IMG/VR virus record: IMGVR_UViG_2703718812_000020
Coordinates: 1-7,777 of that record
Strand: one strand, 5' to 3'
DNA from: a virus
Lineage: Duplodnaviria; Heunggongvirae; Uroviricota; Caudoviricetes
Length of the DNA: 7,777 nt
Below, piece by piece: positions 4,644 through 5,090 of this stretch (positions are counted from its first letter, which is position 1; every line of letters begins with the position of its first letter). Both the position numbers and the translations under genes were made by a program. The notes below the pieces were generated by a model. That model was not told the DNA's origin. It did no database searches and saw nothing but the letters and a program-made list of their open reading frames with translations.

Positions 4644-4739
4644 ATGATTAGTCAATTACCAAACTGGAAATTTTTGCTGGTCTGGAGCATCCCTTTTTTA
4701 TGGGTAGTATCCCAGTTAATTGTGGCAATTAAGGGGTAG
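4644..4739 (+). CDS. candidate micro-ORF P1, 31 aa hydrophobic (MISQLPNWKFLLVWSIPFLWVVSQLIVAIKG)
   Basis: ATG with AGGGAG 9 nt upstream; single TM-like segment; its stop lies 2 nt before the next ATG. Sub-part of the track ORF 4527..4739. Confidence 0.3.
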   Translation: MISQLPNWKFLLVWSIPFLWVVSQLIVAIKG

Positions 4740-4741
4740 CT

Positions 4742-4873
4742 ATGTCAGACAAACTCATAACGCCGGCAAAGGTCCTGTGTGTGATTGTCGGTATTTCATT
4801 TTCACTAATGCTGGTTGCTCTTTTTCTGTCCCTCGCCTGGGTGATGTTGTCTTCGTCGGGGCTGCTGGGGTGA
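4742..4873 (+). CDS. candidate micro-ORF P2, 43 aa hydrophobic (MSDKLITPAKVLCVIVGISFSLMLVALFLSLAWVMLSSSGLLG)
   Basis: ATG with AAGGGG 5 nt upstream; one clear TM-like helix; E. coli-like codon use. Below the track's length cut-off. Confidence 0.35.
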   Translation: MSDKLITPAKVLCVIVGISFSLMLVALFLSLAWVMLSSSGLLG

Positions 4874-4875
4874 CA

Positions 4876-4992
4876 GTGACTGATGACATCAGCAGAGCGC
4901 TGGCTTTTGCTATTAAGTGGGTGGCTGTTGGTATTGCTGTGTCTCCGATGCTGTATGGGCTGGCAAAACTGGTCATTGCGCTGAAATCGTGA
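4876..4992 (+). CDS. candidate micro-ORF P3, about 38 aa hydrophobic ((V/M)TDDISRALAFAIKWVAVGIAVSPMLYGLAKLVIALKS); GTG start at 4876 or 4870
   Basis: GTG start 2 nt after the P2 stop with GGGG upstream. Its N-half resembles P4 and its C-terminus resembles that of P1. An overlapping alternative frame from ATG 4883 cannot be excluded. Confidence 0.35.
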   Translation: MTDDISRALAFAIKWVAVGIAVSPMLYGLAKLVIALKS

Positions 4993-5003
4993 ACTTTAAA
5001 AAG

Positions 5004-5090
5004 ATGAGTGCTGAACTTATTCGGGCAATGGCATTTGCCATTCGTATTGTGGCCATTGCTGTTCTGGTCTGGGCAATCCGTTGGTGGTGA
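5004..5090 (+). CDS. candidate micro-ORF P4, 28 aa hydrophobic ([28 protein letters not shown])
   Basis: Its stop lies 1 nt before the Rz ATG. Resembles the N-half of P3, and several differences between them are synonymous at the codon level (aga/cgg Arg, gct/gcc Ala), which points to selection on the protein. Confidence 0.35.

Follow-up and report, generated by a model that had tools for sequence, protein, structure and literature searches.

The DNA analyzed here, 7,777 nucleotides (nt) of the viral record IMGVR_UViG_2703718812_000020 (positions 1 to 7,777; hereafter the window, to which all coordinates without a locus label refer), is the late region of a lambdoid Escherichia coli prophage. 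Between a terminator hairpin at 4540-4572, downstream of the endolysin gene, and the spanin gene Rz, which begins at 5092, it carries an array of four intact micro-open reading frames (micro-ORFs; 4605-5090), each encoding one hydrophobic helix. Judged by their pattern of sequence variation, these ORFs, P1 to P4, are protein-coding genes under purifying selection and not chance ORFs. The slot they occupy is combinatorial: it draws on at least five peptide families, and the array represents one assortment among many. We imagine that the products are late-expressed, toxin-like inner-membrane peptides that would tune lysis, a reading to which we assign a probability of about 0.4. The ORFs themselves are already known, in that they are annotated as hypothetical proteins and fall in PHROG families of no assigned function. 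What is new is the near-universal presence of such genes beside this Rz family, including in phages that carry Shiga toxin (Stx), the shuffling of families within the slot, and a module in the P3/P4 family that resembles a toxin-antitoxin (TA) locus.

The four ORFs, all on the plus strand, fall into three families, with P1 and P2 each in one of its own and P3 and P4 as paralogues in the third. A preliminary description had placed ORFs of 31, 43, 38, and 28 amino acids (aa) at 4644-4739, 4742-4873, 4876-4992, and 5004-5090, and these assignments hold, except that P1 is likelier to be 44 aa long. Its start is most likely TTG 4605, giving P1 at 4605-4739 (MIDFSKLIRELRLM-ISQLPNWKFLLVWSIPFLWVVSQLIVAIKG), with ATG 4644 an internal alternative start for the 31-aa form. 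This assignment follows from the Shine-Dalgarno (SD) sequence GGGAGG (4594-4599, 5-nt spacing) that precedes the TTG, from the full-length match of the 44-aa protein to phrog_6632 (positions 1 to 43 of 45, E = 1.4e-13), and from a diverged variant, P1*, in which AAAGGAG is followed by GTG at the homologous codon; P1* keeps the motif (F/I)DFSKLIRE. P2 (4742-4873, 43 aa) matches phrog_4906 (E = 4.5e-21). P3 (4876-4992) matches phrog_1115 (E = 3e-24) and has 38 aa from GTG 4876 or 40 aa from GTG 4870, a start that would give a GTGA overlap with P2. P4 (5004-5090, 28 aa), a short paralogue of P3, matches phrog_4493 (E = 3.8e-6).

By Kyte-Doolittle hydropathy over a 19-residue window, for which the usual membrane-helix threshold is 1.6, the best segments of the four peptides score 1.9 to 2.9, in agreement with the single transmembrane-like segment previously noted in each. 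P2 is strongly hydrophobic and ranks at the top of the four, P1 reaches 2.19, and P3 is marginal, near helix 2 of the window's holin (1.83) and the signal-anchor of its endolysin (1.74). The helices are hydrophobic rather than amphipathic, the net charge is +1 to +3, and only 1 to 8 residues separate the helix from the C terminus (AIKG, SSSGLLG, ALKS, and IRWW for P1 to P4, respectively). The gaps of 1 to 3 nt that had been reported between a stop and the next start are found at P1-P2 (2 nt), P2-P3 (2 nt), and P4-Rz (1 nt) but not at P3-P4 (11 nt). Similarly, the purine-rich ribosome-binding sites said to precede most of the ORFs are good for P1 (GGGAG) and P2 (AAGGGG), weak for P3 (GGGG), and absent for P4. 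The SD of Rz, GGTGGTGAT, is made of the last P4 codons, TGG TGG TGA, plus a T.

Selection at the protein level, proposed earlier from synonymous differences between P3 and P4, is borne out by the ratio of nonsynonymous to synonymous change (dN/dS), computed by the Nei-Gojobori method over the distinct DNA alleles of about 190 related loci. The ratio for P3 is 0.25 in the annotated frame (0.15 in the core) and 0.41 to 7.4 in other frames; that for P4 is 0.24 to 0.26, with other frames at 0.65 to 3.7; and that for P2 is 0.41 (18 alleles), with the other five frames at 0.58 to 1.09. The annotated frames show the lowest ratios on the coding strand, where the other frames give about 0.6 to 7, together with an excess of third-position changes. 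Within the RA.AFAI core shared by P3 and P4, four of the six identical residues are encoded by different codons. As for conservation of the frames, hundreds of genomes carry the ORFs intact. All 19 P2 DNA alleles have an undisrupted frame of one length, and frameshifted, fused, or truncated copies of the ORFs occur rarely, as expected in prophages. P2 also conserves specific polar and small residues within the helix, beyond mere hydrophobicity, as its consensus MsDKLItlAK.LCVIVGISFSLMLVA, held across 42 distinct 43-aa proteins, shows.

A single larger gene in another frame had been named as an outcome that would explain the region differently, and none does so. The P3-frame ORF that extends over P2 (90 or 51 aa) is unselected there, with dN/dS of 1.09 to 1.43; the 51-aa RefSeq call for P3, which takes a CTG start inside P2, is therefore over-extended. 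The 70-aa RefSeq call for P1 is likewise over-extended, running through the terminator hairpin. For a 73-aa minus-strand ORF, the codon-aligned antisense frame gives 0.41 over P3 and 0.58 over P2, and the other antisense values are 0.9 to 2.9, all above the sense values of 0.25 and 0.41; the codon-aligned values are fairly low because third positions are shared with the sense frame. All four exact sequences are already public as "hypothetical," "membrane," or "prophage" proteins (hypothetical in RefSeq). At least about 1000 contigs each carry P2, P4, and, as over-extended calls, P1 and P3; the 31-aa P1 is on 18 contigs and the 38-aa P3 on 191. The PHROG families that contain the peptides (6632, 4906, and 1115/3246/4493) are without functional annotation, and several of their profiles rest on over-extended ORF calls of 67 to 90 aa that take in noncoding or other-frame sequence.

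The array is common. Among 5426 complete E. coli genomes, 589 (about 11%) carry at least 80% of it and 1750 (about a third) carry parts of it. We surveyed the slot in 80 viral contigs with a close relative of Rz, and at least one small membrane-peptide gene lay directly upstream of Rz in all 80. The arrangement of the window, P1-P2-P3-P4, was found in 34 contigs, and 2 more had Ant-P1-P2-P3-P4. A single P1-like peptide ending in IRWW occupied the slot in 20 contigs, P3-P2 in 9, and a long P4 alone in another 9. Rarer arrangements were Ant-P2 (2 contigs), Ant-P2-P4 with a methylase (2 contigs), P3-P4 (1 contig), and P2 alone on a contig that is cut (1 contig). P2, the most widespread member, occurs in 276 phage records, nearly all of them from Stx-converting phages, where the genes run S-R-ant-P2-Rz. 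Annotations of P2 exist for BP-4795 (ORF50), phi191, and Sakai Sp10 (ECs_1966), but most records lack one. The peptides are partnered with R21-type lysozymes, GH108 endolysins, and one M15 peptidase, and with differing holin families. This range of partners (three types of endolysin, several of holin) argues against a role as partner of a specific holin.

The slot also holds further single-helix families, PY (50 aa, phrog_12997) and PX (49 aa, no PHROG), at L092 3362-3514 and 3679-3828 and at L088 3307-3504, as well as larger cargo. Ant is a frequent insert (L003, L103 to L105), and a 255-aa ORF lies between P4 and Rz at L131 1216-1983 (also in L129) and looks like a DNA methyltransferase by reading alone. 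In GH108 cassettes, P3-P2 is followed by a 60-aa lipoprotein (L085 3806-3986; L088 3779-3961) with the lipobox LVGC, matching phrog_7528. Its mature part is about 30 aa long with three Cys residues, and Rz/Rz1 are not recognizable in those cassettes; this protein could be a spanin substitute or a receptor blocker like Cor or Llp.

The relationship of P3 to P4, already noted from their common core, is supported by a local alignment score of 51 against 23 ± 4.5 in 5000 shuffles and by two families, phrog_4493 and phrog_3246, that match both. The C-terminal likeness previously described between P1 and P3 is present, but it is borderline (shuffle P of about 0.008) and has no family-level support. 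Comparison with relatives indicates that P3 and P4 are 5′-truncated copies of a family of 50- to 60-aa proteins. The long P3 form has 60 aa (M.KYKRILLRLTMKNGLELKAPVTDD...; M.KYKRILLRLT-MKNGLELKAPVTDD-helix), and P4-like long forms reach 50 aa. The P3 frame of the window opens exactly at VTDD, where the Val codon is GTG in truncated copies and GTA in long forms.

The family looks taxonomically narrow. P2 was found in E. coli and Shigella only, and P3/P4 in E. coli, Shigella, and Salmonella only, plus a few metagenome contigs. A P3/P4 profile search of 1.84 billion representative proteins returned 20 clusters, all of 20 to 87 aa, and the 14 sequences that were read are recognizable family members; when the P3/P4 alignment was run against GTDB at one genome per species, 94 pattern matches came up and none was confirmed. 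The idea that P3 is a fragment of pinholin helix 2 was rejected as unsupported: a weak pairwise resemblance to the start of that helix was suggestive (shuffle P of 0.002), but the holin Pfam family has no match to P3, and the profile search brought up no larger protein. Two oddities touch this family. A single 554-nt ENA contig (P0092) encodes a 59-aa chimera of an S21-type holin N terminus and a P3 C terminus, joined at SQWVA(I/V)GV, which is either a natural recombinant at the short shared stretch or an assembly artifact. In locus L040, P4 is fused in frame after residue 25 to a long ORF that reads by eye as tail-fiber-like, reflecting either rearrangement or misassembly.

The hairpin upstream of the array has a 15-pair GC-rich stem followed by GTTTTTATGG, with T-rich runs on both strands, so it can be read as an intrinsic terminator in either direction. 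It is homologous to a hairpin (AAAACCCCG, a 7-nt loop, CGGGGTTTT) that precedes the long P3/P4 genes in six settings. Three of these are in lysis cassettes, after an R21-type lysozyme (once with long P3, once with long P4) and after a GH108 endolysin; the others are after a SASA esterase at the tail-fiber end of a Salmonella prophage, after tail-fiber genes on a metagenome contig, and within a myovirus baseplate operon. Compensatory changes in 4 of 11 stem pairs across nine contexts indicate that the hairpin is preserved. In all six settings, a promoter scan placed a minus-strand sigma-70 site with an 18-nt spacer at the same position, inside codons 3 to 12 of the long gene. Its −35 element (TAGTCA, TTGTCA, TGGTCA, TGGACA, or TAGACA) overlaps the ATG of MKNG/MKG, and its −10 element (TATACT, TATAAT, or TAACAT) falls within codons 3 to 5.

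This antisense promoter is directed at the hairpin, which scores as a minus-strand terminator in L101. The predicted antisense RNA, of 75 to 105 nt, would begin with a 5′ tail and finish in a strong hairpin and a U-run. Its 5′ end would be complementary to the SD AAGGGAGAA and to the codon at which the 60-aa ORF starts. The hairpin and promoter together span L101 1669-1771, L094 3400-3501, L187 2940-3037, L188 2915-3001, L085 3400-3501, and L185 1755-1883. In layout, then, the long P3/P4 loci resemble type I TA loci, with the exception of a sense promoter. No sigma-70-like plus-strand site was seen between hairpin and ORFs in the window or its relatives (one weak site in L094 lies upstream), and a promoter scan found no plus-strand promoter in 3800-6000 of the window. 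Because there is no sense promoter, the mRNA for the long peptides must come from late readthrough.

In the window itself, it is P1 that follows the hairpin, apparently using the same region for its translation start. A weak, doubtful promoter-like site, the only one on the minus strand, does lie there (4719-4748; CTGACA, 18-nt spacer, CACAAT), and RNA from it would oppose all of P1 and end at the hairpin. We do not accept this site as a P1 antisense promoter: it is at chance level (one site versus 2.3 expected in shuffles) and is not conserved in the Ant-P1-P2 variant. The small RNAs (sRNAs) from Hfq-CRAC work on Sakai were also considered as candidates for the predicted antisense RNA and set aside, since EcOnc11 is downstream of Rz, EcOnc33 is at an esterase 3′ end, and EcOnc22 is between tail genes. 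None of these three located peaks is at the endolysin-Rz junction, and since the long P3 module was not found in Sakai, this has no bearing on the RNA.

How do these peptides compare with known systems? Searches of Pfam, NCBIfam, PADLOC, and PDB sequences with all of the peptides gave nothing meaningful; in particular, there was no PADLOC defense profile match at E ≤ 1 and no Pfam, NCBIfam, or PHROG holin match to P1-P4. They are not spanins, since they have no lipobox and no part outside the membrane exceeds about 20 aa. A "disruptin" of the phiKT gp28 type is an amphipathic peptide of strong positive charge that stands in where a spanin is lacking (bioRxiv 10.1101/515445), whereas the peptides here are weakly charged and nonamphipathic and a spanin is present.

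The closest parallels may be with type I TA systems (hok/sok, including hokW-sokW of Sakai prophage Sp5; ldr/rdl; zor/orz; tisB/istR). As in those, the product is a prophage-borne, single-helix hydrophobic peptide of no more than 60 aa (28 to 60 here). For the long P3/P4 relatives, a cis-antisense RNA over the SD and start codon is predicted. The differences are that there is no sequence similarity to known toxin families, that the toxin mRNA has no promoter and apparently needs late readthrough, that P3 and P4 of the window do not have the antisense promoter, and that P1 and P2 have no such layout at all. The peptides also recall small membrane proteins that are coexpressed with holin, endolysin, and spanin: the S21 pinholin/antiholin, P1 LydB, P2 LysA, Mu releasin gp25, and Lcc6 of LambdaSo. 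They differ in having no homology to these, no charged C-terminal tail like that of holins, and several holin and endolysin partners, and the lcc6 gene lies elsewhere in its genome, outside the lysis cassette. The peptides resemble type I toxins and accessory lysis proteins in their possible working, not by membership.

We imagine the following sequence of events. P1-P4 would be transcribed only when Q-antiterminated late transcription passes the terminator hairpin, and they would be translated alongside the lysis proteins (holin, endolysin, and spanin) as the lytic cycle ends. Such coproduction is suggested by the lack of a promoter of their own, the terminator upstream, the chaining of the genes at 1 to 11 nt, and the placement of the Rz ribosome-binding site in P4 codons. 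A tie to the lysis cassette is also suggested by the peptide gene next to Rz in all 80 surveyed contigs and by the place of P2 between ant and Rz in Stx phages. The peptides would then insert late into the inner membrane, where they might lower the membrane potential, affect holin triggering, or pack against other transmembrane helices. The result would be tuned timing and completeness of holin, endolysin, and spanin firing, with the peptides acting as accessory rather than essential components. Among the functions that the preliminary description had offered (antiholin-like or spanin-modulating factor, exclusion factor, small toxin), the last gains indirect support from the TA-like layout of the long P3/P4 relatives; for antiholin-like or spanin-modulating action the evidence points neither way. 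Since those relatives are organized like type I TA loci, at least the P3/P4 family is probably harmful if made at the wrong time, and in that sense toxin-like and membrane active. Two precedents make the lysis-tuning part plausible. In prophage Sp5, the type I toxin HokW helps lysis along and raises phage release twofold (PMC8621323). In LambdaSo, a lambda-like phage of Shewanella that encodes a pinholin and a signal-anchor-release (SAR) endolysin, lysis requires Lcc6, a 65-aa membrane protein with one helix (bioRxiv 10.1101/2024.01.23.576932).

One can envision a broader version, which we offer tentatively and consider doubtful as a whole. The endolysin-spanin junction, in lambdoid prophages of E. 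coli, Shigella, and Salmonella and in nearly all Stx phages, would hold a fourth class of lysis genes, so far unrecognized: interchangeable micro-toxins. P3/P4 would be a new TA-like module, a 60-aa toxin and a roughly 80-nt antisense RNA sharing one bidirectional terminator, with the RNA silencing the peptide in the lysogen and setting the lytic threshold. The array in the window would be a stack of toxins, some truncated and devoid of the antisense promoter, that sharpens or advances lysis and the release of phage and Shiga toxin.

Several observations weigh against the view that the peptides tune lysis as toxin-like proteins. In lambda, R and Rz overlap by 4 nt with no gene between them, so that, as had been pointed out, lambda has no counterpart of the array; in the Qin prophage of K-12, Rz also directly follows R. 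The peptides are therefore dispensable for the basic lysis mechanism. The set of peptides in the slot also changes freely from locus to locus, so none of them is indispensable by itself. Members of the P3/P4 family also occur outside lysis cassettes, after tail-fiber or esterase genes (Salmonella and a metagenome contig) and within a myovirus baseplate operon. The long forms have a basic N-terminal segment and an antisense promoter that P3 and P4 of the window lack, so the activity of these two may differ from that of the long forms. Selection on P1 is weak (dN/dS of about 0.5, other frames at 0.48 to 1.14, one antisense frame equally low). The antisense RNA remains a prediction: Rfam searches of the window and six related loci matched only an STnc100-type sRNA at 221-393, leaving the array and the predicted RNA unmatched. 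Finally, we found no study of these peptides, of BP-4795 ORF50 or ECs_1966, or of small ORFs between R and Rz in the literature.

The occurrence of P3/P4 at other late junctions, after tail-fiber or SASA esterase genes and before a baseplate gene, is also what one would expect if the peptides were moron-type membrane proteins unrelated to lysis, serving in superinfection exclusion, cell protection, or envelope modification at a junction that merely tolerates insertions. The slot also takes Ant and a DNA methylase, its shuffled modular composition is typical of morons, and sequence downstream of pR′ has been described as tolerating moron insertions (Tree et al. 2014, PMC4104026). Known exclusion and moron proteins (HK97 gp15, T4 Imm, Cor, Bor) are likewise small envelope proteins, found at late-operon junctions, mosaic in distribution, and at several sites per family. 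However, classical morons each bring a promoter of their own with a terminator behind them, and the lysogen expresses them, whereas here the terminator is upstream and a sense promoter was not found, making the usually needed lysogen expression unlikely. In addition, PADLOC gave no match, and an antisense RNA that masks a start site is typical of a harmful rather than a protective product. On balance, we regard this explanation as unlikely.

Alternatively, the peptides could be specific partners of the spanin, packing against the Rz helix and holding the spanin inactive or aiding its assembly until the wall is degraded. The invariable position of a peptide gene immediately upstream of Rz in the 80 surveyed loci would fit, as would the fixed place of P2 beside Rz in Stx phages regardless of upstream content, the overlap of P4 and P1* with the Rz ribosome-binding site, and the conserved small-residue motifs of the helices. 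Linkage alone explains the adjacency, however, and P3-P2 is found in GH108 cassettes with no recognizable Rz/Rz1, with other P3/P4 relatives near baseplate or tail genes. Lambda Rz is established to function without such partners. There is also no significant similarity to the Rz helix; P2 in particular was considered as a copy of it on the basis of a shared VLCV and rejected (P of 0.12). We think a role specific to the spanin improbable.

The overlap of P4 with the Rz ribosome-binding site raises another possibility, that the ORFs are kept as a translational relay passing ribosomes down to Rz after insertions split it from R, the peptides themselves having little or no function. The stop-start gaps of 1 to 2 nt, the Rz SD in the final P4 codons, the lack of an SD for P4, and the coupling of lambda R and Rz by their 4-nt overlap would all suit a relay. 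A relay would not, however, account for frame-specific purifying selection along whole ORFs rather than at their ends alone, for the conservation of specific residues, or for the antisense promoter of the long forms, nor does it need every member to be a single-helix hydrophobic peptide, and we give it very little credence. That the ORFs are chance or decaying ones in a noncoding spacer, as their very short lengths, the weak selection on P1, the stop that cuts P1 in locus L097, and the rare frameshifted or fused variants might suggest, is largely refuted by their intactness in hundreds of genomes, by the third-position excess and lowest same-strand dN/dS in the annotated frames, and by homologues of P2 and P3/P4 that are small proteins of similar size in Escherichia and Shigella (and, for P3/P4, Salmonella).

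Phage burst size is set by when lysis occurs, and for Stx phages lysis is the exit route of Shiga toxin. If the peptides do modulate lysis, the three-part cassette of holin, endolysin, and spanin would be an incomplete account of lysis in E. coli prophages of a very common kind, and a toxin paired with an antisense RNA in late operons, if true, would be a new way to silence a lysis-related toxin. Even if their function is minor, the annotation points stand: P2 is missed in many phage records, and the RefSeq calls for P1 (70 aa) and P3 (51 aa) are over-extended.

The surroundings of the array are those of a lambdoid late operon. The compared part of the window, 4450-5100, is 100% identical to loci in O55:H7 CB9615, O103:H2 12009, and others. 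The STnc100-type sRNA (221-393, plus strand) is a full-length Rfam match scoring 104 bits against a gathering score of 47; STnc100 is a prophage sRNA family, related to PasD by a 2026 preprint. We take this sRNA to be the pR′-proximal one that marks the start of the late operon. It is followed by a SASA-family esterase (659-2380). The lysis cassette opens with a 68-aa class II (S21-type) holin (2673-2879, plus strand; PF04971, E = 4.4e-32), whose CB9615 counterpart PGAP labels "class II holin family protein." The endolysin (3916-4449, plus strand, 177 aa) is of the lysozyme type (PF00959, E = 1.4e-24; phrog_7), and its N-terminal segment is weakly hydrophobic and SAR-like (hydropathy of 1.74 over residues 9 to 27). 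Rz (5092-5586, plus strand), which starts 1 nt past the P4 stop, encodes a 164-aa i-spanin (PF03245, E = 7.9e-50; phrog_13). The o-spanin gene Rz1 lies within it in the +1 frame (5312-5497, plus strand) as an ORF with the lipobox VVSAC; PF06085 was called on the homologous Rz1 ORF in locus L091.

Two further ORFs lie among or next to these genes. Between holin and endolysin, a 329-aa ORF of the DUF1327/YdfR family (2884-3873, plus strand) matches phrog_1085 end to end (E = 2e-180); PGAP marks the CB9615 copy as a truncated pseudogene, the identity of the two loci having been checked for 4450-5100 only. Downstream, a 74-aa ORF (5583-5807, plus strand) overlaps the Rz stop and matches only positions 100 to 172 of the 291 in phrog_2571, and it is probably a gene remnant.

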